From a virus, in the IMG/VR virus record IMGVR_UViG_3300047409_000266, positions 32,529 to 96,528 of that record: 64,000 nt of DNA, one strand, 5' to 3'. Positions 1 through 11,381 of the stretch are shown one piece after another (position 1 is the first letter of the stretch; each line of letters begins with the position of its first letter). The position numbers and the translations under genes were made by a program. Below the pieces are notes generated by a model that was given only the letters and a program-made list of their open reading frames with translations, had not been told where the DNA came from and did no database searches.

Positions 1-168
1 GAGACAGTAGGTGTTCGACATACCATCGTTTGGCCGGTTCTCTTTTCCGAACCGGATCAGCTTGCTCGCTGCCTGGATAACCTCGGCGCATTCCTCCATC
101 AGGATCACAAGCAATTCGCGCTCGTAGTCCGTGAGCGTCACACCGTTGGGCTGGTAGCGTTCAGACAT
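1..168 (-). CDS. MazG-like/all-alpha NTP pyrophosphohydrolase family phage protein (3' end runs off the window)
   Basis: Manual minus-strand translation MSERYQPNGVTLTDYERELLVILMEECAEVIQAASKLIRFG... has the EECAEVIQAASK motif; preceded by TGAAAGGCCCGC-ATG. Confidence 0.55.
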   Translation of the reverse strand, partial: MSERYQPNGVTLTDYERELLVILMEECAEVIQAASKLIRFGKENRPNDGMSNTYCL

Positions 169-177
169 GCGGGCCTT

Positions 178-399
178 TCAGGCAGCGTGGTCGAGTAGGA
201 TTTGCGTGGCCTTGTTCTCAGCGTCGGCGCGAGACATGACGCGCTGGCCACCATCGCGGCCTGGGTAGCCCCAGGTTACATAGAACTCGCCCTTGCGGCC
301 GACCGGGTAGAAAGCCGCGTAGGCTTCACCAGCTACGGCACGCCACATTTTACGGCCTTTGGCGGTTCCATCCGGCATTACGACTTGCTGAAATTGCAT
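178..399 (-). CDS. hypothetical phage protein
   Basis: ORF 178..471; likely start at ATG 399 (MQFQQ...) with SD AAAGGAG. Confidence 0.55.
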   Translation of the reverse strand: MQFQQVVMPDGTAKGRKMWRAVAGEAYAAFYPVGRKGEFYVTWGYPGRDGGQRVMSRADAENKATQILLDHAA

Positions 400-448
400 G
401 GCGGTTCTCCTTTGGGCCTTTCGAATTAATCCCACCAGTTCAGGCGGG

Positions 449-510
449 TTTGTTCCAACGACTATTGACATACGCCTCGGGTGAGTTTATGTCAATGCCT
501 GTGGAACAAA
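449..510. promoter_or_regulatory. nested dyad with overlapping divergent sigma70-like promoters; possible res/operator site
   Basis: TTTGTTCCA(449-457)/TGGAACAAA(502-510) and ATTGACATA(464-472)/TATGTCAAT(488-496); TTGACA on both strands between divergent gene blocks. Confidence 0.6.
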
Positions 511-533
511 TTATTTTGGCATAGGCGCTGGGA

Positions 534-1145
534 ATGATTCGAACTTACATAAACGCCGCTTGCGGGGTTCCAGCCGCAGAACAGACGGCAATATGCCAAG
601 GTAAGGGCATGGATCGGAATGTTGTTTACACGGATAGTCGGACCAGTTTTCCCAAGGAACGGGCGGCGCTAATTAGTTCGCTGCGGGTCAATGGGAAGGG
701 CGACACAGTACTGGTGTCTGATTTGGAAGCGCTGGCAATCAATAAAAAGGACTTGCGCGCGATCAGGGCAGCCTTGAAGGCCAAGGGGGCGACAATCCTT
801 GAGGGCCGGACAAAACGGCGCTCCACGAACGCCGAACAGCTTGCAGACATGATCCAGGACGCCTTGGATCGATGGTCCCACAAGGGGCGACGATGGTCCA
901 ATGAGAAGGTACAGGCCGAGGATGCCAGCAAAGGCGGCAAAGCGTTGGCTGAGACCCGTGCCGGGCGGAAGGTGCCCGATCGCAGGGCGCTCCAAATCTG
1001 GCTGGATGGTCGGCTAACCGCTGATGAGGCCGTGGACCGCATCAACGGTATTCCAGGCTACGAACTGAACTGGACTCGATCGACGGCCTACCGCGATCTT
1101 GGCAGGCGCAAGCTTAAGACTGGCCCGATCTCGGGCAGAAAATAG
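534..1145 (+). CDS. serine resolvase/invertase-like protein, catalytic residues apparently lost
   Basis: Resolvase-like pattern (Y...Q...VYTD...R..L...GDTVLVSDL) and C-terminal HTH (TRSTAYRDL); YARVS replaced by YINAA and DRLGR by EALAI. Confidence 0.6.
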   Translation: MIRTYINAACGVPAAEQTAICQGKGMDRNVVYTDSRTSFPKERAALISSLRVNGKGDTVLVSDLEALAINKKDLRAIRAALKAKGATILEGRTKRRSTNAEQLADMIQDALDRWSHKGRRWSNEKVQAEDASKGGKALAETRAGRKVPDRRALQIWLDGRLTADEAVDRINGIPGYELNWTRSTAYRDLGRRKLKTGPISGRK

Positions 1146-1155
1146 GAGCCGAGCC

Positions 1156-1323
1156 GTGGGTTACGAACACCGCGAAGATTCACAGCAAATGGATTTCCGC
1201 AATGATCCAAAATCATGCGGGCATTGTTGGCGGTGCGGTGAGTTTCGTAGTTTGCGCTGTATCGAGCAGCATGGGTGGCTATGCCGTCCTTGTATAAAAA
1301 TTGACGAAGCCGAAAGCCGATAG
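1156..1323 (+). CDS. small Cys-rich (Zn-finger-like) protein
   Basis: GTG after GGAGCCG junction; CxxC motifs. Confidence 0.5.
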   Translation: MGYEHREDSQQMDFRNDPKSCGHCWRCGEFRSLRCIEQHGWLCRPCIKIDEAESR

Positions 1324-1333
1324 GGGCCGTTCT

Positions 1334-1576
1334 GTGAATGCCAAAACACCTTCATGCGTCATTGCAGATTGGCTCGCGCTCACCCGCGCCGGTCAGTGGA
1401 CCCCAATGGAGGCTGCGCGGGAGGTCGTCGGTAGGTTGAAGTTAGAGGGCTACGCTATCGTTCCGAAGGAGCCGACCGAAGAAATGATTGACGCTGGCGA
1501 AATGGCCGTTGCTGACAATATCATCGAAGACACAGCACTCGAAACATATCGTGCAATGATCGGCACGATTAAATAA
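1334..1576 (+). CDS. hypothetical phage protein (VPxEPTEEM motif)
   Basis: IVPKEPTEEMIDAG...YRAMI pattern common in small phage proteins. Confidence 0.6.
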   Translation: MNAKTPSCVIADWLALTRAGQWTPMEAAREVVGRLKLEGYAIVPKEPTEEMIDAGEMAVADNIIEDTALETYRAMIGTIK

Positions 1577-1656
1577 AAGGAGCCGCGCATGACTGACACG
1601 ACCTGCCTAGATGAAATCATGCGCGTCTGGGATGACCTCATGGATTTGATTTTACC

Positions 1657-1893
1657 GTGCCGATGGAAACGATTAGGAAATGGAAGAAGGCCGTGGCAGT
1701 AGAGCGTCTATTTGACTTGATGAATTTAATCTCTTGGGCCGAAGCTGAACTAGCGCGGGTAAAGAATCGAACGCCGCTAAGGAACGCTGACGTGAACCGT
1801 GAACCAAAGAGTTGGTATTGCGATCAGTGCCACGTCGAAGTTTACGAACGGCGCTGTCCTCACTGTGGGAAGCTGGAAAAAGACAAGTCCTAG
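1657..1893 (+). CDS. small protein with C-terminal Zn ribbon
   Basis: CDQC...CPHCG; stop abuts junction motif. Confidence 0.5.
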   Translation: MPMETIRKWKKAVAVERLFDLMNLISWAEAELARVKNRTPLRNADVNREPKSWYCDQCHVEVYERRCPHCGKLEKDKS

Positions 1894-2037
1894 AAAGGAG
1901 TCGACCCGTGATTGAGTTGACTCTTGTTCTCATCGCGCTGGCGCTCACAGTCTATTGCGGCTGGCATAAAATGTTCGGGATGTGGAAGTAAGAGGACTCA
2001 CTATGCCAAAATCGAAATGTTGTGAAGAAGCCGAGCG

Positions 2038-2142
2038 ATGAATTTTACGGGTTGGATACCGCCGGAGTTTTACGTGATCGTCAGTCTCGCGGTATTGGTG
2101 CTGTTCTTCGGTGGCTATTTCGTTTGGTCTATAGTCCATTAA
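2038..2142 (+). CDS. 34-aa membrane peptide
   Basis: Manual translation MNFTGWIPPEFYVIVSLAVLVLFFGGYFVWSIVH; stop is part of the junction motif. Confidence 0.45.
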   Translation: MNFTGWIPPEFYVIVSLAVLVLFFGGYFVWSIVH

Positions 2143-2154
2143 AGGAGCCGAGTC

Positions 2155-2295
2155 ATGATCAAATATGAAAATCAGTACGGCGCGGAAATGGCATGGGCTA
2201 ATTTTCACAAGCTGGTGTTTTACGGCACGGCTCGCTGGCCGTCTTACTGCTACTGGATTGTCCCCGGCACGATCACTGATTTAGAACGAATGTGA
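2155..2295 (+). CDS. 46-aa hypothetical protein
   Basis: Manual translation MIKYENQYGAEMAWANF...; junction motif on both sides. Confidence 0.5.
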   Translation: MIKYENQYGAEMAWANFHKLVFYGTARWPSYCYWIVPGTITDLERM

Positions 2296-2304
2296 AGGGA
2301 GCCC

Positions 2305-2460
2305 GTGATGGAGAAGGACATGCTGGAATTTTTGACGATCCAGGCCATCATGAATAATTACCGATGGACAACTGCTCCTGAACGACAGGATAAGTTGGAA
2401 CAGCGCGGGCTTCAGTTAGCTGAACTGCTCGCGCTCAGCATCGCCAACCGTGGCAGATAA
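2305..2460 (+). CDS. 51-aa hypothetical protein
   Basis: Manual translation; junction motif on both sides. Confidence 0.5.
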   Translation: MMEKDMLEFLTIQAIMNNYRWTTAPERQDKLEQRGLQLAELLALSIANRGR

Positions 2461-2472
2461 AGGAGGCTTGGC

Positions 2473-2814
2473 GTGAGAATGTTCACGATCATGGTCGCGA
2501 CGTATCGCATGGACAATGAGATTGTGGACGCGCGTACATTTGGCACGCCATATCTATGCGTCTGTATGCCGTGGGACATGATCGCATCACACGAAAGACA
2601 GGCGCACAAAAATCATAGTCAGACACTTGAGAGGCTTAATGAGCGCGGCGGACTTTCCGCGTGTGAGGCGCTGGCGGTTCTTGAGGATCGCGAATATCGG
2701 CGGATGCCGAAGGGTGCAGCCAACCACGAACTGTGTCGCAAGATTGCCGATTGGATAGACGAACAATGCGTTCCTGATCCTGCGAACGCTAATTCATCTC
2801 AGGCCCTTGCCTGA
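2473..2814 (+). CDS. hypothetical phage protein (NHxQTLERLxERGGL motif)
   Basis: ORF track; strong SD AGGAGG. Confidence 0.65.
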   Translation: MRMFTIMVATYRMDNEIVDARTFGTPYLCVCMPWDMIASHERQAHKNHSQTLERLNERGGLSACEALAVLEDREYRRMPKGAANHELCRKIADWIDEQCVPDPANANSSQALA

Positions 2815-2827
2815 CGAAAGGAGCCCG

Positions 2828-2965
2828 ATGCGCAAAAAGCCGAAAACAAAGAAGCGGCGAAAGGAAAAGCGATTGACCTGCTTTTGTACCGCCATCTGTT
2901 TTGGAAATGCAAAGCGCGGGCAAATCTGCAAGATGTATGATCCTAGAATTAAGTTGAACCATTAA
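2828..2965 (+). CDS. 45-aa basic Cys-containing peptide
   Basis: Manual translation MRKKPKTKKRRKEKRLTCFCTAIC...; junction motif on both sides. Confidence 0.45.
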   Translation: MRKKPKTKKRRKEKRLTCFCTAICFGNAKRGQICKMYDPRIKLNH

Positions 2966-2979
2966 AGGAGCGAGTTTGT

Positions 2980-3091
2980 GGCGGGGTAGTTCAAGTCTCT
3001 ATAAGAACGGCTCATGCAACGACAAGGTAGCTAGCATACTACGTCGCCAAGATGAGCAGATCGCGGGTATGGAATCCCGCACCCGCAGCCA
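2980..3091 (+). ncRNA. tRNA-like RNA with greatly expanded anticodon arm and 3' CCA
   Basis: Acceptor GGCGGGG/ACCCGCA + G + CCA, U8A9, D stem GTTC/GAAC, GCTCAT/ATGAGC stem enclosing 36 nt, variable AGATC, T stem GCGGG/CCCGC. Confidence 0.55.
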
Positions 3092-3109
3092 AATGAAAGG
3101 AGCCGCGTT

Positions 3110-3304
3110 GTGACCATCAGATGCGCCGACTGCGGCAAGTTCATTCCGACAACTCAGCTTGTGGACGACAGCGCGCGTTTCTTTTATCAACCCGATAGTG
3201 AATACGGCCATGAGATTTCGGAATGGACCTGTGCCGGTTGTGTTCAAAAAGAAAAACGACAGGCAGAAACCGAAGAACGTAAGCATCAGAATGAATTAGG
3301 ATAG
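3110..3304 (+). CDS. small Zn-finger-like protein
   Basis: CADCG...CAGC; junction motif on both sides. Confidence 0.55.
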   Translation: MTIRCADCGKFIPTTQLVDDSARFFYQPDSEYGHEISEWTCAGCVQKEKRQAETEERKHQNELG

Positions 3305-3353
3305 GAGGCCAAAATGTTTGGTGACGGTGGAACAGAATTCTGAAAGGGACGCT

Positions 3354-3539
3354 GTGACCGAGATTGAACGCTTGCGCCGCGCCCTGCAAAAGATTGCAGA
3401 CTTGCCGGTGGAGAAATTTCCGGGGGCTAAGTTCGATCCGAACTTGCGCGCCAGACGTATTGCTATTGCAGCGCTAGGTGGCGACCCGGAAAGTGCAGAC
3501 CATGAGAAGTTTTATTTGGTAAAAGGGACGCCATCATGA
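3354..3539 (+). CDS. hypothetical phage protein (EIERLRxAL motif)
   Basis: GTG after AAAGGGACGC; in frame with ORF 3318..3539. Confidence 0.55.
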   Translation: MTEIERLRRALQKIADLPVEKFPGAKFDPNLRARRIAIAALGGDPESADHEKFYLVKGTPS

Positions 3540-3727
3540 ACTTGATTAAGCCCGAAGTCTGGTCGCGATGTGACGCTCAGTGTTATGGGCTATCGCGGCT
3601 TACTGGCTGGCGAGCCATTCAGAATTAAAGGGACGCTGTGACGCCATTTGAGGCAACTTTTGTTATGGTGGTGGGAACAGTTATTTTTCTCATCATTCTA
3701 CACACAGGCAGAAGGTAGGAGCGAAAA

Positions 3728-3943
3728 ATGTATGACCTCTTAATGAGCAATGGAATCATGTTTGGTTTTGGCGGCATCGTGGGCTTTCTGATTGGTCAGA
3801 AAGTTACGAAGTGGCCAAGCGAGCAAGCAATGATGGACCGGTTAGTCATTGAAGCTACGCAACGCAGAATGCTCGGCGTCACTCAAAAAGACATTGAGCA
3901 TAATATCGAAACCCGCGTTGAGGCTAATCTGAACAAAATCTGA
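3728..3943 (+). CDS. small membrane-anchored protein
   Basis: N-terminal hydrophobic segment; junction motif on both sides. Confidence 0.55.
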   Translation: MYDLLMSNGIMFGFGGIVGFLIGQKVTKWPSEQAMMDRLVIEATQRRMLGVTQKDIEHNIETRVEANLNKI

Positions 3944-4280
3944 AAGGGACGCAAATGGCTGCCGCCGTAGCAATCAGGCATATTGCGCAAGGTATCTGCC
4001 GAGTAGTTAGCAGAGGTTGCGTCATGGACGAAAAGCCGAAGCGTCCTGTATGCACGGCGAAGAATTGTCGAATGGTTCGGATCGCGCACATGGCCGTTAA
4101 ATCGGCGCTGGAACAGACCAAGTAAGGGACCGCGATCCGTGAAGCAATTCGGAATATCAGGCGAATGTTTAGACCATGTCGCTGAAATGCGAGAGCGAGA
4201 GAGAGACAAATATCTCCGGTCGTACTCAACTTGGTTTCGGAGACTTTTGCACTGGCTAGGATTGGAGTGAAAGGGACGCC

Positions 4281-4514
4281 ATGACGCGCACAGAGGCAGA
4301 AGCCGAAATGGTTCAGGGGTTCATGGACGGCTATGACGTGGATTGTCCGGTGCCAAGTCTCAATCGCAGCTATAGTTATCGGCACGGGTTTTTGAACGGT
4401 CGCGATGACAAAGTTCTCAAGCGTCCGCGAGACACCGCAGAGCGATTACGCGAGATAGCCGAGGACTGTATCGCACTCGATTGCGGTGAAGTCGTTTTGG
4501 CGCAGATGGCATAG
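4281..4514 (+). CDS. hypothetical phage protein
   Basis: ORF track; SxNRSxSYRHGFxNGRDD pattern; junction-flanked. Confidence 0.6.
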   Translation: MTRTEAEAEMVQGFMDGYDVDCPVPSLNRSYSYRHGFLNGRDDKVLKRPRDTAERLREIAEDCIALDCGEVVLAQMA

Positions 4515-4530
4515 AGCCGAAAGGGACGCC

Positions 4531-4848
4531 GTGCTGATCCCCTGTGATATGGGCTCCGAATGTTACTGGCCAGCGTGCAATCTAGATTGCCGTGGGCGGA
4601 TCATGGAGGCCAAAACGCTTAGCGTGGCTGTGCCAATTGCCGATAAGGTAAACCGCTGCGAAACCTGTGGCGTCGATACCGACTTTATTCACGACCACAA
4701 GTCGGACAACTCCGGTTTAGATGACGGCCCTTACTTACCTGGGTGTAGGCCACGGAAGCGGCCAGTTCGCAGGGACGATCTTGGCGAGGTGCGCAAGCGG
4801 GCGTGGCAAACGCGGCGCACTAAATACGGCAGCAGGGGGCACAGATAG
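4531..4848 (+). CDS. hypothetical protein (RxRAWxTRRxKYG C-terminus)
   Basis: GTG after junction; in frame with ORF 4486..4848. Confidence 0.55.
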   Translation: MLIPCDMGSECYWPACNLDCRGRIMEAKTLSVAVPIADKVNRCETCGVDTDFIHDHKSDNSGLDDGPYLPGCRPRKRPVRRDDLGEVRKRAWQTRRTKYGSRGHR

Positions 4849-4850
4849 CA

Positions 4851-5021
4851 ATGAAAACACTTGGCCAGCTTTCCTATGAACGCGATCTTGAGTTGCGCCC
4901 GCTCTATCACGATGGCGAGCGACGTAAGCCATGGGAGAAACTTAGCGAGATTTGCAGGTGGAGTTGGAATCGACCGATACCTATTCCAGCGCGGGAGGAC
5001 GGCGATGGCGCGCGGGTTTGA
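4851..5021 (+). CDS. 56-aa hypothetical phage protein
   Basis: Manual translation MKTLGQLSYERDLELRPLYHDGERRKPWEKLSE... Confidence 0.5.
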   Translation: MKTLGQLSYERDLELRPLYHDGERRKPWEKLSEICRWSWNRPIPIPAREDGDGARV

Positions 5022-5169
5022 TCGTTTTGAGGAAGGCGAGCGACTGATCAATATGCTGCTCAAATCTAGCGAATGTGGCGGCATGGGAATGAACGAGACG
5101 CCATGTGAATATTTGCGGCGACTACTCGATGTACTTAAAAACGCAACAATCATGCTTGAGGAATGAGCC

Positions 5170-5364
5170 ATGACTATGAAGGTTGAATGTTATTTCTGCG
5201 GCGACGATTGCTCAACCGCACACGCGACCTGGCATGGCTACCCGTGTCACATCATGTGCATTCCAGCAAAGCCAAAGAAAACCGTGAGTGAAGTTGCTAC
5301 ACCGCAACCAATGCGGACTGGCGGCGTGCCAGTCTTTGCCCGTGTCAATGGCACAGAAATATAA
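5170..5364 (+). CDS. small Cys-rich protein
   Basis: CYFCG...CHIMC; stop in junction motif. Confidence 0.5.
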   Translation: MTMKVECYFCGDDCSTAHATWHGYPCHIMCIPAKPKKTVSEVATPQPMRTGGVPVFARVNGTEI

Positions 5365-5374
5365 AGGGACCGCG

Positions 5375-5566
5375 ATGGCACGCAAAAAGAAGAAAGACGG
5401 CAAGCACATTTGCAAATGCGAATGTGGCGGCGAGGTTCGCGGCGTTGAAAGCCTGGGGCGCATGTTTACATGGTGCGAGAAATGCACGCCCATCACTAAG
5501 ATCGCGCCCGATGCAATTGCGTCATGGTATCACGGCGACATCGACGGTGATGGATCGCTGGCATAG
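5375..5566 (+). CDS. small Zn-ribbon protein
   Basis: ATG after junction; CKCECG...CEKC. Confidence 0.55.
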   Translation: MARKKKKDGKHICKCECGGEVRGVESLGRMFTWCEKCTPITKIAPDAIASWYHGDIDGDGSLA

Positions 5567-5585
5567 AGCCGAAAGGGACCGCGAC

Positions 5586-6146
5586 GTGTGGCCTACGGAA
5601 TATCGATTGATTAAAACTCTGCGAGAGCGCGCAGACTTAAAGCAACGCAACGTCTGCTATTGGTGTGCCATGCCAATGTTGAATGATGTGACGGCTGAAC
5701 ATTTGATCCCTCGACACGCGGGCGGCAAAACTGTTGCGGGAAACATCGTGGCGGCACATCGCAAATGCAATAGCGGACGGCAACACCAAGACCCATTAAG
5801 ACGACAAGAACAGTTGCAAAATGCGTTGCGAAATTCTTTGCAACGAACGTGCATGGAGGTCGTGGTGCCAGTCAACAAATTTTATAATGATAATTTTACG
5901 GCGGCAGAGTTGGCCGACGCGATTGAACTCGGTTCTGCAATTTCTATACGGCGAGATCAGAAGTGGGTAACGTATCGAATGCGCCCGCTGTTCTCAAAGA
6001 TGGTGGCTAGAGCAATTCGACTTGGTTGTCCTAGCGAATGCTGGCACGCGAAGATAGATGACGGGGCGATGTTAAAATGTAGCTTGAAGGGTGGCCATGG
6101 CGGTCAACATAAAATGGCTGTCATTGCTACGCAGGACGAATTTTGA
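5586..6146 (+). CDS. HNH endonuclease
   Basis: CYWC...TAEHLIPRHAGG...NIVAAHRKCN. Confidence 0.8.
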   Translation: MWPTEYRLIKTLRERADLKQRNVCYWCAMPMLNDVTAEHLIPRHAGGKTVAGNIVAAHRKCNSGRQHQDPLRRQEQLQNALRNSLQRTCMEVVVPVNKFYNDNFTAAELADAIELGSAISIRRDQKWVTYRMRPLFSKMVARAIRLGCPSECWHAKIDDGAMLKCSLKGGHGGQHKMAVIATQDEF

Positions 6147-6832
6147 AAGGGACGCAGCGTGTGGGGCGAAGTATACTCGACTGGATGGGGAATGCCGCTC
6201 ATGTTTTGCCGGGTTTGCGGTGGGCGCGTAGGTGACGGCGCGTGCCCGCGTCACCCGCAAGCGCCAGAAGGAATGCAAATGCTGATCGACAAATATCTTG
6301 GCTTGCTAGTTGGCAGGCACGTAGAACAGACAACTTAAAGGCACGAGCCATGAGCATTCGGATTGCTGGAAGCATGACGAGGCTAGCGGAGCGCAATGCG
6401 TTCGAGCGAGTTGCGCGTTGGCATTCTCGAATGTCTAAGCTGGCCAAAAACAGTGAAGAAAAATATTGGCACTTGAACGCAGCCAAGGTGTTCCGATCAT
6501 GGAAGCGCCGTGGGATTCAAACTTAGAGGACCACGCTTGGCCTTAGAGCTAAAATATAGTCCGCGCTTTATAAACCGCCTGCAACGATTGGCGCGCGGCG
6601 CGACTTATCCGATTTGGTCAATGACAAGTTTCAAGGCTTCAGTAAGTAAACCGAAGCCGATACGGCAAGACAAACTGAAACGCAGGAAATAGGGACCGCG
6701 CAGTGAACTTGATTGATGTTCTACGAGAAGGCGGCGAACCTGCAATGCAGATGATTAGTGGATTTATTTTTATTTTCGGACTGCTCATTGAGTTGATTTG
6801 GATTGCTGACGAGATTCAAAAATAGGGGAGAT

Positions 6833-7306
6833 TTATCGCCGCTGTGCCTTCATCCGCCTAAAACTTTCTGGCTGGTCCCAAAGTCCTTGCCAAATACCGC
6901 GCAGATTCTCACGCGCCTCCGCCTCCGCAGCGGCATAAACTCCCTTGGAATATCTGGCGTAATCTATCGCCATTCCAGCGCGGACCATTTGCTCACCCAG
7001 GTCTTTGCCATCGACTGAACACGTCGCAATGATTCGATTATAAATATCGATGGTGCCTGTCAAACATTCAACGCGCTTGTTCAGGATCAAACTCAGAAGA
7101 TACGTCCTGGCGGCCACGCCGCAGCGGTATGGCGTATGATTGGCATCAAGGCATGTCTGATCGAGCTCTGGCGCGTCCACGCCATAGAGCCGGACGCGCT
7201 TACCACCAACAATCAAAGAATCGCCATCCGTGACCTTCACATCGTTGTCGACCAGCGTGAAAGCTGCGACCAGGATGCCAATGGCAAGTGCTGCAATGCG
7301 AATCAT
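6833..7306 (-). CDS. thermonuclease (SNase-like) family protein
   Basis: Signal/TM, VTDGDSL, RVRLYGVDAPEL, DxYxR, AEAEAR...RGIW. Confidence 0.9.
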   Translation of the reverse strand: MIRIAALAIGILVAAFTLVDNDVKVTDGDSLIVGGKRVRLYGVDAPELDQTCLDANHTPYRCGVAARTYLLSLILNKRVECLTGTIDIYNRIIATCSVDGKDLGEQMVRAGMAIDYARYSKGVYAAAEAEARENLRGIWQGLWDQPESFRRMKAQRR

Positions 7307-7539
7307 TTTAACCTCTTAAAGCCAAGATGCTCGGCAAGAGACCTTGAGATCTCGCACTGTGGCATTGGGATAAAATCGACGTTGTCGTTGTTCTTCAAAG
7401 CGGTGCGCATATTTATGATGATATCACGCTGCGCATCAAGGTATCCGCACGAATATGCCAGACTTGCGCGATTTGCCAAAAACACGATAGCCACGAACGC
7501 AACAGCCAAAGTGCAACTTCCAATAATTCTCCAGATCAT
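7303..7539 (-). CDS. small membrane protein
   Basis: ORF track; stop/start overlaps with neighbours. Confidence 0.55.
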   Translation of the reverse strand: MIWRIIGSCTLAVAFVAIVFLANRASLAYSCGYLDAQRDIIINMRTALKNNDNVDFIPMPQCEISRSLAEHLGFKRLK

Positions 7540-7757
7540 TTCCAGCCTCCCTTAAGAATACGGTCGGCACGTCGCAGATTGCCGATGTTGAATTTTGCTC
7601 TGAACATCACTCTACGTTGTCGCGGTGCGGTAAGTCCTGGATGAAACCGTGGAGGTGCGGCATCCCATTCGCCGGCTTCGAGTGCGAACGGTTCAAGTGC
7701 TCGCTTGAGCGCTCTGATGCGGCGGCGCAGGCGGCCGTATTTGGTTGGCTTCCTCAC
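7536..7757 (-). CDS. hypothetical protein
   Basis: ORF track; translationally coupled. Confidence 0.55.
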   Translation of the reverse strand: MRKPTKYGRLRRRIRALKRALEPFALEAGEWDAAPPRFHPGLTAPRQRRVMFRAKFNIGNLRRADRILKGGWK

Positions 7758-8179
7758 CGGCTGAACCCCCGTGATTGCAGTTTCCGGCCGCTGTTCCAGG
7801 GGTGTTTCCTCCCTGGGATCGATCCTGTGCGTTTTCGAGGCTTCCCAGGTTGTCGGGTAGCGACCGTCTGCCGAGACGCAACCAGTGCCTTCGCCAAGCG
7901 GTCGGCCTTGCGCATTTCGGGAATGTCCTTTTTGGCGGTCTTATCTTTGTGGGCTTTCCGGAATCGCCACGTCACGTTCCACGGCTGGTGAGGGTTGACG
8001 CCTTGCTTGATCGCGTCGTCGTACCGGATCGGGTAATGGTCTCGAGCGAACAAAGAAATCACCATATCTGCGGTCATCTGCTTCGCATGCTCATACGGAA
8101 TCGCAGGTTTGCCGTCTGGACCAGGGATCTGCAATAGCGCGGCGGCAAGCTGCACCTTCATTGGGATATGTCTACTCAT
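7754..8179 (-). CDS. HNH-like phage protein
   Basis: DHYPI...HQPWN...HKDKT; start at ATG 8179. Confidence 0.55.
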   Translation of the reverse strand: MSRHIPMKVQLAAALLQIPGPDGKPAIPYEHAKQMTADMVISLFARDHYPIRYDDAIKQGVNPHQPWNVTWRFRKAHKDKTAKKDIPEMRKADRLAKALVASRQTVATRQPGKPRKRTGSIPGRKHPWNSGRKLQSRGFSR

Positions 8180-9465: not shown

Positions 9466-10725
9466 CTATGCCGGGTATGCCGGGACGGCTGATTGTTTTG
9501 CAGTATAGGCCAGCCGCACCTCGGTCCGCTCGGCCTCAGATAGCGCCTGGATCGCCTCGTCATTGTCTTTGGCCCAGCGCAACGCACCCAGTTTGCTTTC
9601 GATCTTTTCCATGCTGGATATCAGGGCATCCTTTTTTGACGCACTGGCGGCCTTCTCTGTGGCTTGCTCTTTCGGCTGCTCTGGCTCCTTGGCGGCTGCG
9701 GGCTTCGCCGGGGTATGTTTTGCGCCTCTGGCCTTCTCAATCTCAGCTTTCAGCGCCAAGGCGTCGTTCTTACTGTGCCCCCAGAATTCTTGGAGTGTGG
9801 CGCGGTTCTGATCTTCAAACAGCTTGATCTGCTCCGGTGTTTTGCCACTGAGCCACGCGATCACAGTGTCGGCAAACTTTCCGAATGGGATTTTCTCCTG
9901 CGCGGTGGTGTCGTGGAAGTAGACCATGAGGCCGGGAGGTCCGAGACGCGCGAGGCGATTCTCAGTCTCGGCCTTTGTCACCATCTCGCTCGGCGTGAGG
10001 TCTTGATATTCGACATCCTCGAGCACGGCGGAGCGATCGGTTTCTTCCTGCACATAGAGACGTGACAGATCCTCGGGCCAGCCTTTCCGCAGAGCGCCCA
10101 TCTCGGAGCATTTGGCGATCTGATTGCGGCCTGACTTGATCCAAGCGTCTTTTTTAGGATCGAGACGAGCGGTGACTTTCGCGCCGGCCTTCAATTTCTT
10201 TCGCTTTTTCGGATTGCCATCCGGCCATGTCTCGCCTGTTTCTACCATGTCGTAATCGTCATCATCGCCAGCACGAATAAGAGGCGCAAACTCGTCCCAG
10301 TAGACCGTGTGCACGATGCGCTGGAATGGATCGTTGGCGGTCGGTCGATGATAGACACCGACAGTGCATGTCTCGATGCCGTGCGGGTTGCTAAGAGGGT
10401 CTTTCAATTCCTCTTTGAAAACCCATACTGGCGGGTGATCGTCAGGACGATAATTGCATGTGCGCGCTGCGATTGACCGGCTACCGTCGATGCCGGTGAC
10501 GAGGACCATGTTTCGTTTCTTCGGATCATTCTTTGAAAAAACAAAAGCGTAGAGTTGTTTGCGAAGCGGCGAGAGGTTCAATTCTCGCGCCACCGCAACC
10601 GCCTCGTCGAATTCGTCGGCGTTGCAATCCTTGAAAGCCGTGCGCCTGACTAGCGAGACCATCTTCGGATCTTGCCACCAGGAAGTTGCTGGCAGTGTGT
10701 TGGTGGGCTTTGTGAGGGCGTTCAT
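9466..10725 (-). CDS. bet: RecT/Red-beta family single-strand annealing protein
   Basis: LSPLRKQLY, TGIDGxRxIAAR, W...QIAKCSExxALRKGWP..LSRLY. Confidence 0.85.
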   Translation of the reverse strand: MNALTKPTNTLPATSWWQDPKMVSLVRRTAFKDCNADEFDEAVAVARELNLSPLRKQLYAFVFSKNDPKKRNMVLVTGIDGSRSIAARTCNYRPDDHPPVWVFKEELKDPLSNPHGIETCTVGVYHRPTANDPFQRIVHTVYWDEFAPLIRAGDDDDYDMVETGETWPDGNPKKRKKLKAGAKVTARLDPKKDAWIKSGRNQIAKCSEMGALRKGWPEDLSRLYVQEETDRSAVLEDVEYQDLTPSEMVTKAETENRLARLGPPGLMVYFHDTTAQEKIPFGKFADTVIAWLSGKTPEQIKLFEDQNRATLQEFWGHSKNDALALKAEIEKARGAKHTPAKPAAAKEPEQPKEQATEKAASASKKDALISSMEKIESKLGALRWAKDNDEAIQALSEAERTEVRLAYTAKQSAVPAYPA

Positions 10726-10736
10726 TGGTGTGCTCC

Positions 10737-11381
10737 TTAGATAAATCTGATGGCGACAGAAAAACTCCCGTTGCCGAGCTCGGCACCTGGGATCGGCGGG
10801 TTTGCCGCGACGATGGCCTGCAACGCCGCGGAGTACGCTGGCGTGCCTTCCTCAAGCTCGCCCTTCTTAACGCGCGATTCGAGGTCATCGATCGCCTTAG
10901 AGCGCGCTCTCAATGCGGTGGTGAGATCGGCGCGACTAAGTGCTGGCTCTGGCACCTTGAAGAAGCTTGCCGGCACCATCGCCTCATCGGTAACGACAAG
11001 CTTGGGCTGGACAAAGCGCCTGCTGATTGTTGCGATGTCTAGTTCAAACTTATCCTGGCCGAGAACTTCAAGTGCGCTGACCAGCATGGTTCGCATGAAA
11101 TCAATGCGGTTCTCCAGCCTGCTCTTGCGGGCCTGCTTGCGTTCGATCGACTTCTTGATGCCAAGCACGCGCGTATCGTCATCATCGATTTGGATAACGA
11201 TCCGCTTCATCAATTCCAGAAGGTTGGTCTCGCCCTCGATGGTGTCCTGTAGGGTCTGCTCGTCCAGTTCCTGATCTTCTTCGGCCAGGATGGTTTTCAG
11301 TTGCTCCTTGAGCGCCGCGGCTGCGGCCGTCTCCTTGGCCAAGTCGCGCCGTGCGTCGGTGTTCTGTTTGGTACGTGCCAT
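10737..11381 (-). CDS. siphovirus Gp157 family protein
   Basis: DTIEGET, coiled coil, C-terminal IPGAELxNG; next to recombinase. Confidence 0.75.
   Translation of the reverse strand: MARTKQNTDARRDLAKETAAAAALKEQLKTILAEEDQELDEQTLQDTIEGETNLLELMKRIVIQIDDDDTRVLGIKKSIERKQARKSRLENRIDFMRTMLVSALEVLGQDKFELDIATISRRFVQPKLVVTDEAMVPASFFKVPEPALSRADLTTALRARSKAIDDLESRVKKGELEEGTPAYSAALQAIVAANPPIPGAELGNGSFSVAIRFI

Follow-up and report, generated by a model that had tools for sequence, protein, structure and literature searches.

The sequence analysed here is a 64,000-nt window corresponding to bases 32,529–96,528 of the 96,528-bp IMG/VR record IMGVR_UViG_3300047409_000266, which CheckV rates as complete. It comes from an uncultured 96.5-kb phage whose host, to judge from sequence homology, is probably alphaproteobacterial. 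At window positions 1143–6825 the phage carries an array of very small genes, and the junctions between these genes share a short motif placed directly before start codons. The array is the rightward arm of a divergent operon pair, of which both arms start from a palindrome-rich gap (window 420–533); both operons are presumed to be early, given their position and gene content. The sequence was read on the plus strand and translated from motif-adjacent starts, giving 29–31 co-oriented and tightly packed open reading frames (ORFs) of 9–186 codons between 1156 and 6825. An earlier note on this DNA had described about 28 co-oriented mini-units, which this reading bears out, and its count of 24 motif junctions was fair, as ~26 junctions fit when near-variants are included.

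Many of the mini-gene products carry CxxC pairs and are zinc-ribbon-like, several are peptides with a single transmembrane segment, and one is an HNH protein (PF01844, 25.5 bits against a cut-off of 21.4). Two further products match PHROG families of unassigned function, and therefore at least some of the array ORFs are real genes. The first gene of the rightward operon encodes a resolvase-like protein, which reached 19–20 bits with PF00239, under the Pfam cut-off; only profile positions 19–115 were matched, leaving the catalytic N-terminus unmatched. The leftward arm holds about ten further small genes, from window 471 to genome position 30,100.

Nearly all junctions follow one order: a stop codon or A-run, AGG, two variable bases, a C, two bases that are G or C (S), 0–6 nt and the start codon. 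The string AAAGG-N-N-C-S-S is common to three families. Block 1 junctions read T(A/G)A-A(0-3)-GGAGCC(G/C), followed by 3–6 nt and then ATG or GTG. In block 2, eleven junctions between 3346 and 6692 read T(A/G)A-A(0-2)-GGGAC(G/C)(C/G) and fall into two discrete sub-forms. The switch from GGAGCCG to GGGAC(G/C)C near 3300/3341, which had been noticed before, is confirmed as a change between two block-specific families. The third family, AAAGGCCCG, belongs to the leftward operon and has at least 8 copies on the minus strand between genome positions 30,100 and 32,950. Its junctions read T(A/G)A-AAGGCCCG, then 1–6 nt and ATG or GTG; the copy at window 166–180, previously listed as a similar leftward junction, is a member of it. 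Junction copies number 12 in block 1, 14 in block 2 and 10 in the left array, every one co-oriented with its gene (Table 1). The first leftward gene has AAAGGCCC 18 nt 5' of its ATG and, separately, an AAGGAG. The gene at 534 is preceded by TAGGCGC-N6-ATG, yet no ORF terminates there.

Both arrays close with degenerate linker-like sequence after which no gene follows. On the right this is TAGGGGAG (window 6826–6850). The left array ends in TAAGGCCA (genome 30,095–30,105, minus strand), and the GC-rich hairpin after it looks like a terminator of the convergent plus-strand genes.

Table 1. Genes, junction copies and repeats of the array and its surroundings, in window coordinates
Feature	Position	Strand	Remarks
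Leftward operon start	1..471	-	extends beyond the window to genome 30,100
Resolvase-like gene, 203 aa, first of the rightward operon	534..1145	+	PF00239, sub-threshold
Block 1, ~13 mini-genes	1143..3313	+	junction motif GGAGCC(G/C)
GGAGCC strict junction copies	1145, 1579, 2144, 2298, 2820, 3099	+	n=6
GGAGCC internal copy	1468	+	not at a junction
Block 1 variant copies	1323, 1897, 1992, 2462, 2967, 3305	+	
Ambiguous unit	2976..3113	+	45-codon TTG ORF, or cloverleaf-like RNA 2980-3093
Block 2, ~17 mini-genes	3341..6702	+	junction motif GGGAC(G/C)(C/G)
Block 2 sub-form GACGC	3346, 3525, 3630, 3946, 4273, 4523, 6149	+	
Block 2 sub-form GACCGCG	4126, 5366, 5575, 6692	+	
Block 2 variants	3717, 6339, 6527	+	
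Motif copy inside upstream coding frame	3520..3538	+	ORF 3354-3539; ATGA overlap with next start at 3536
21-nt exact direct repeat TGGCATAGAGCCGAAAGGGAC, copy 1	4507..4527	+	hybrid linker TAG-AGCCG (block-1-like) + AAAGGGAC (block 2)
Three genes without the block motif	4851-5021, 5005-5166, 5170-5364 (stretch 4848..5364)	+	ordinary ribosome-binding sites GGGGG, GGGAGGA, GAGGA
21-nt exact direct repeat, copy 2	5559..5579	+	
HNH endonuclease gene, 186 aa, inside the array	5586..6146	+	PF01844; block-2 linker at both sides
RecT/Bet-family single-strand annealing protein, 419 aa	9466..10725	-	PF03837 in homologues

For comparison with other ribosome-binding sites (RBSs), genes were called across the genome using a codon-usage model, starts were set by a rule taking the first start with a Shine-Dalgarno (SD) sequence, and upstream regions were aligned on the last AGG. 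Information content outside the AGG was 0.9 bits in non-array RBSs (n=60), and 6.2 bits in block 1 (n=12), 8.9 bits in block 2 (n=14) and 9.4 bits in the left array (n=10). AGGnnC was present at 30/36 array junctions and 13/60 non-array sites (Fisher p = 3e-9), and AAAGG at 24/36 and 8/60, respectively (Fisher p = 1e-7). On the plus strand of the 96.5-kb genome, all ten copies of AAGGGAC lie within 2.8 kb (3344–6147), each directly before a start codon, and one copy is found on the other strand; the probability of such clustering is ~3e-17. Similarly, 7 of the 8 minus-strand copies of AAGGCCCG are inside the left array. The raw number of AAGGGAC copies is little above that of shuffled sequence (10 against 5.1 expected, and 10 against 7.0 in a second shuffle test), so the signal resides in how the copies cluster, in their shared strand and in their fixed place before starts.

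The motif is real, special and block-specific, and conservation beyond an SD, as the earlier note had claimed, is borne out: by both information content and Fisher tests, the junctions are more conserved than ordinary RBSs. This bears on the explanation that the junctions are ordinary SDs which look alike through tight packing, with the stop beside the SD, and through chance. Pairing with rRNA does account for the 5' half of the motif, and the 7-mer totals in the window exceed shuffles only modestly; however, pairing leaves the 3' half unaccounted for, and 6–9 bits against 0.9, with the p-values and clustering given above, make this explanation very improbable.

The AGG lies 5–11 nt from the start codon in 36/36 junctions, across all three families, and the motif holds the sole SD-like element of the array genes. 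Gene boundaries are a different matter. The copy at 3523 is located within ORF 3354–3539, and its TAA (3520–3522) is out of frame, as had been pointed out before; the copy at 3097 is likewise inside an upstream ORF, provided that ORF 2976–3113 is real. The motif therefore follows the start codon and not the gene boundary. Since it stays with the start, and since the copy at 534 has no ORF ending in it, the 'stop' is best described as a part of the motif that is able to double as the upstream stop codon.

The unit containing the 3097 copy had been taken for a non-coding, tRNA-like element. The stretch 2980–3093 gives a cloverleaf-like fold (z = -2.2) that terminates in GCCA, and the TTG ORF at 2976–3113 is preceded by a well-spaced AAGGAG and overlaps the next start by GTGA. 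In the array ARAGORN detected no tRNA, and Rfam gave no match in 1–7500; with the TTG ORF covering the same stretch, the tRNA-like reading was not confirmed. Pairing of a CGGCUC in this unit with the block-1 GAGCCG was also considered and dropped, as the hexamer lies inside a predicted stem and is expected by chance.

To describe pairing with the 16S rRNA, the tail of the presumed host was used. Homologues of the annealase are named from Bradyrhizobium, and one with 57% identity occurs in a Xanthobacteraceae metagenome-assembled genome (MAG); the homologues of the annealase module thereby hint at an alphaproteobacterial host. In Xanthobacteraceae genomes the 16S gene ends in ...GGATCACCTCCTTTCT, of which the complement is AGAAAGGAGG. 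A match to the 16S tail in the annealase-bearing MAG itself was not a 16S gene and was discarded, and the tail was taken from other genomes of the same family. The conserved 5' half of the motif, (A)GAAAGG(AG), matches the complement of the 16S tail CCUCCUUUCU and pairs with the far end of this tail. The C of AGGnnC and the two following S bases have no complement in GGATCACCTCCTTTCT, the tail inferred for the host. Predicted duplexes with CCUCCUUUCU had mean energies of -10.3 kcal/mol in block 1, -7.4 in block 2, -5.5 in the left array (median -4.2) and -7.0 in other genes, and the best-conserved family, the left one, has the weakest predicted rRNA duplex. The 3' half (AGCCG; GACGC/GACCGCG; CCCG) adds no pairing, and spacers in the arrays are GC-rich, compared to A-rich elsewhere in the genome. 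GTG starts were counted in 16/35 array genes and in 18/103 genes of the rest of the genome.

Bases conserved beyond rRNA pairing could also be bound as DNA. Stoperators of Cluster A mycobacteriophages are asymmetric 13-bp sites at which L5 gp71 blocks elongation (PMC3203893, PMC4351075). Applied here, a phage regulator, for example the resolvase-like helix-turn-helix protein encoded at the operon head, would block elongation through the early operons. The likeness is in the ~13-bp asymmetric sites that are oriented with transcription, occupy short intergenic gaps and overlap stop and start codons, which are stoperator descriptors (PMC3203893, PMC4351075); moreover, the product of the first gene is of a DNA-binding type and has no detectable catalytic N-terminus, and one motif copy stands 18 nt 5' of the first leftward gene, apart from its RBS. 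Stoperators, however, are repressor-bound DNA distributed over a whole temperate genome and not tied to RBS spacing, whereas the motif here is an RBS that supplies the sole SD at canonical spacing, is confined to two operons and leaves the rest of the genome without copies. Three families would require three specificities, and the phage showed no sign of lysogeny, such as an integrase. An operator role of this type is accordingly rated as improbable.

Recognition could also take place on the transcript, with a phage or host endoribonuclease cleaving the motif and shutting off the early operons block by block. T4 RegB cuts GGAG in early Shine-Dalgarno sequences. Block-specific SD flavours that are confined to presumed early operons and conserved in excess of rRNA pairing would suit such processing or decay sites; against this, no RegB-like or other RNase gene was identified, in a search that was not exhaustive, and we give this explanation very little weight.

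The array had previously been called integron-like. Integron arrays likewise consist of co-oriented, promoterless small ORFs that follow a single regulatory region and are headed by a recombinase-like gene. In this phage, in contrast, there is no IntI-type tyrosine integrase, and the head protein is a sub-threshold relative of serine resolvases: PF00589 tyrosine recombinases were absent across the 96.5-kb record, while 14/14 control genomes were positive. Nor were attC-like imperfect inverted repeats present at the junctions, where the gaps from stop to start measure 9–25 nt; the 12 inverted-repeat pairs of the region all lie elsewhere. With the motif tied to the start rather than to a cassette boundary, the integron comparison was rejected.

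Two phage systems offer parallels for repeats between small genes. Promoter-early stem-loop cassettes (PeSLs) of T4-type phages are units of promoter and stem-loop terminator for which linker-mediated shuffling, of the sort proposed in the earlier note, and mini-circles are documented (Arbiol et al. 2010, PMC2839356). Like the present linkers, they recur between small early genes that are non-essential and make up a hyperplastic region. They differ in consisting of a promoter and a terminator and in being long enough for homologous recombination, whereas the linkers here are 9–21 nt RBS modules. In the array region, 6 promoter-like sequences were found against 6.1 expected and 6 terminator-like sequences against 7.9, none of which recur at junctions. 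In Cluster O mycobacteriophages, 17-bp dyad repeats in gaps of the non-structural arm flank indels between related phages (PMC4351075). These form a precedent for a 21-nt repeat pair in the present array (Table 1), but they are palindromic, unlinked to start codons and for one third located within genes.

The repeat pair belongs to the evidence that the linkers might primarily be DNA-level homology patches, through which mini-genes are gained, lost or shuffled by the adjacent Gam/RecT-Bet/NinB-like module. This module is 2.6 kb from the array, in an opposite-strand block downstream that converges on it and comprises endonuclease-like, NinB-like, RecT/Bet annealase, Gam-like and phrog_8203 proteins; the Bet annealase named in the earlier note was verified as a RecT/Bet-family protein. 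The 21-nt repeat is the best self-match in the region (100%), and between its copies lie 1,052 bp with five genes, of which three have ordinary non-motif RBSs. The identity runs 11 nt past the core, into the last two codons of unrelated genes. Further exact junction repeats measure 18 nt in the left array and 16 nt in block 2, the linker sub-forms GACGC and GACCGCG are discrete and interspersed instead of randomly varied, and tandem hybrid linkers occur as TAG-AGCCG-AAAGGGAC and AAAGGCCC-AAAGGAG. A 9-codon ORF at the block boundary and the HNH gene end alike (GAATTYTGAAAGGGACGC). The second array gene had no detectable homologue in 5.8 billion proteins and its resolvase-like neighbour has relatives of 60–63% identity, which fits fast turnover, and the PeSL (PMC2839356) and Cluster O (PMC4351075) elements provide precedents.

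Several results speak against this function as the primary one. The conserved cores of 9–12 nt are far under the minimal efficient pairing segment of Red-beta, 23–27 bp (PMC3945230), which argues against an efficient form of the Bet-mediated shuffling proposed before. As shown above, the motif is fixed to the start codon and not to the boundary, and PeSL-like promoter or terminator cassettes are missing from the array. Paralogous or duplicated cassettes were not found by self-blastn. The GC content at third codon positions (GC3) is uniform among cassettes (chi2/df 0.85, against 2.0 ± 0.6 in size-matched pieces of long genes), and base composition therefore gives no hint of recently acquired foreign genes or of the two acquisition episodes that the two blocks had been thought to record. 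We consider a primary role in recombination unlikely, and recombination at the linkers a possible secondary property of the motif. Rather unlikely as well is a combined reading, in which the linker families would be portable adaptors of homology-guided cassette exchange: every mini-gene would carry a stop/RBS linker of its own along with it, Gam-RecT-NinB would recombine linkers of the same sub-family, and the block-specific non-SD bases would also be recognised in the mRNA by dedicated factors, which may include some of the zinc-ribbon mini-proteins and which would time the translation of each block.

Two similarities within the array are recorded separately. The 9-codon ORF (3314–3343) occupies the very point where block 1 gives way to block 2 and ends in GAATTCTGAAAGGGACGC, a near-match to the HNH gene end GAATTTTGAAAGGGACGC (6126–6156), and the shared end may be a deletion scar. 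A 53-nt similarity between 3571–3623 and 4535–4586 involves different reading frames and was judged to be due to chance.

Relatives were searched for at the level of proteins, alignments and motif patterns. Neither blastn of 1–8000 against INPHARED phages nor a tblastn search of the phage collection with two array proteins produced a match. The resolvase-like protein has only the two relatives of 60–63% identity, both from Logan assemblies, and used alone or as an alignment it retrieved nothing from IMG/VR, JGI metagenomes or GTDB genomes. The terminase gave only four matches, to fragments of 4–8 kb at 64–70% identity. Searching IMG/VR with the annealase yielded nothing. The annealase alignment retrieved 34 JGI metagenome loci and 4 GTDB loci, which have in common the Gam–single-strand annealing protein(–NinB) module only, and in which 0 of 49 array or neighbouring proteins tested were present. 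The Gam-like/RecT-Bet(/NinB-like) module (window 9466–11381, minus strand) occurs at 50–66% amino acid identity in many metagenomic contigs and the Xanthobacteraceae MAG. As these contigs share the module without the array genes, the recombination module is a mosaic unit of its own.

Motif-based searches were similarly unproductive. Scanning IMG/VR for a motif pair (AAAGGGACSC, N140-170, AAAGGGACSC) gave 23 loci, about the chance number, none with an array, and 6 matches to the 16-nt hybrid linker were due to chance, none of them similar to the phage. K-mer over-representation in related loci revealed nothing comparable. Counts of AAGGCCC in distant loci were set aside, since they reflect coding sequence for Lys-Ala or Lys-Gly-Pro.

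The anatomy of the motif corresponds most closely to that of start-associated sequences (SAS), and the earlier note, which did not recognise it as a described element, was mistaken on this point, as this kind has been named since 2011 (PMC3203893, PMC7302621). In Cluster K mycobacteriophages, SAS have the consensus GGGATAGGAGCCC and are asymmetric repeats of ~13 bp, present in 11–19 copies in one orientation and among non-structural genes only (Pope et al. 2011, PMC3203893). They lie 3–7 bp before starts and have an SD core flanked by conserved non-pairing bases, with the upstream stop sometimes inside (PMC3203893). In Cluster EF Microbacterium phages the SAS is GGGAAAGGACCCC (PMC7302621). At about half of the sites an extended SAS of 17-bp inverted repeats lies directly upstream, which accompanies the SAS but is not required (PMC3203893, PMC7302621).

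Like SAS, the present motif is a short asymmetric repeat with 10–19 copies in a single orientation, restricted to non-structural genes. It takes the RBS position a few nucleotides 5' of the start codon, often contains the upstream stop, and has an SD core flanked by conserved bases that are unable to pair with 16S rRNA. The sequences are also alike, through AGGAGCC in block 1 and, for block 2 and the left array, through GAAAGG with its C-rich tail. There are differences as well. One genome here holds three operon- or block-specific families instead of one, the 5' GGG is absent, and GTG is as common as ATG, while in Cluster K a strong preference for ATG is seen at SAS. The probable host is a proteobacterium and not an actinobacterium. 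No extended SAS and no recurrent inverted repeats were seen at the junctions, which are too short because the upstream stop abuts or overlaps the motif. The class itself was already known; new are three operon-specific flavours in a probably alphaproteobacterial phage.

Based on position, orientation, spacing, conservation, restriction to two operons and a 3' half without rRNA pairing, we favour the interpretation that the motif is an SAS-type extended translation-initiation module in three block-specific versions, with a probability of roughly 65%. The ~30 mini-genes would be translated from one polycistronic mRNA. On this mRNA the 5' half, (U)(G/A)AAAGG(AG), which overlaps the preceding stop and can pair with the 16S tail, would serve as the SD for termination-coupled re-initiation. 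The 3' half, consisting of NNC and two to four G/C bases in block-specific form (AGCCG; GACGC or GACCGCG; CCCG on the left), would be recognised in the mRNA, not by the anti-SD but by some phage or host factor that sets or shuts off translation for each block. Identical linker sub-forms may have spread by copying, through recombination or gene conversion, during the gain and loss of genes, with the linkers acting as weak homology patches.

A number of points weigh against the SAS interpretation. No relative carrying the array was found in INPHARED, IMG/VR, JGI metagenomes or GTDB genomes. The predicted accessibility of the initiation region did not differ between array and other genes, and frequent GTG starts (16/35) together with GC-rich spacers would as a rule reduce initiation, a strange property if the motif served purely to enhance translation. 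Two displaced copies, that of the first left gene and the AGCCG remnant in the 21-nt repeat, are more than an RBS role by itself would explain. Both the host and, through it, the anti-SD tail are deduced only from homologues of a single module. Finally, 'SAS-like' names a class and not a mechanism.

Other features of the locus and the genome were recorded alongside. In block 1, two ORFs in different frames overlap within 1589–1893: ORF 1589–1702 (37 aa) and ORF 1663–1893 (76 aa, zinc ribbon), which together span 305 nt, the second being without RBS or motif. A single gene may have been divided here by a frameshift, either programmed or due to an assembly error. The gap between the divergent operons contains, at 440–520, a long imperfect palindrome, TTGTTCCA-N-TTGACATA ... 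TATGTCAA-N-TGGAACAA, and TTGACA boxes in both directions; matching -10 elements (TATGTC) are poor and were not called by the promoter scan. This palindrome may represent either an operator or a pair of overlapping divergent promoters. Outside the window, a single ORF of 4,831 codons (genome 9,968–24,463) is the largest gene of the phage.

SAS have been described mainly from actinobacteriophages, and the same anatomy in this phage, together with the likeness of its sequences to the published motifs, suggests a general need across host phyla and not a quirk of one lineage. The block-specific versions form a natural experiment, in which the role of the non-SD bases in ribosome binding can be set against a role in recognition by a factor. 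Such linkers could also help to locate hyperplastic arrays of early genes, in which genes for anti-defence and host takeover are to be expected. If the linkers were in addition portable adaptors for cassette exchange, one short sequence would be both a translational operator and a recombination address.

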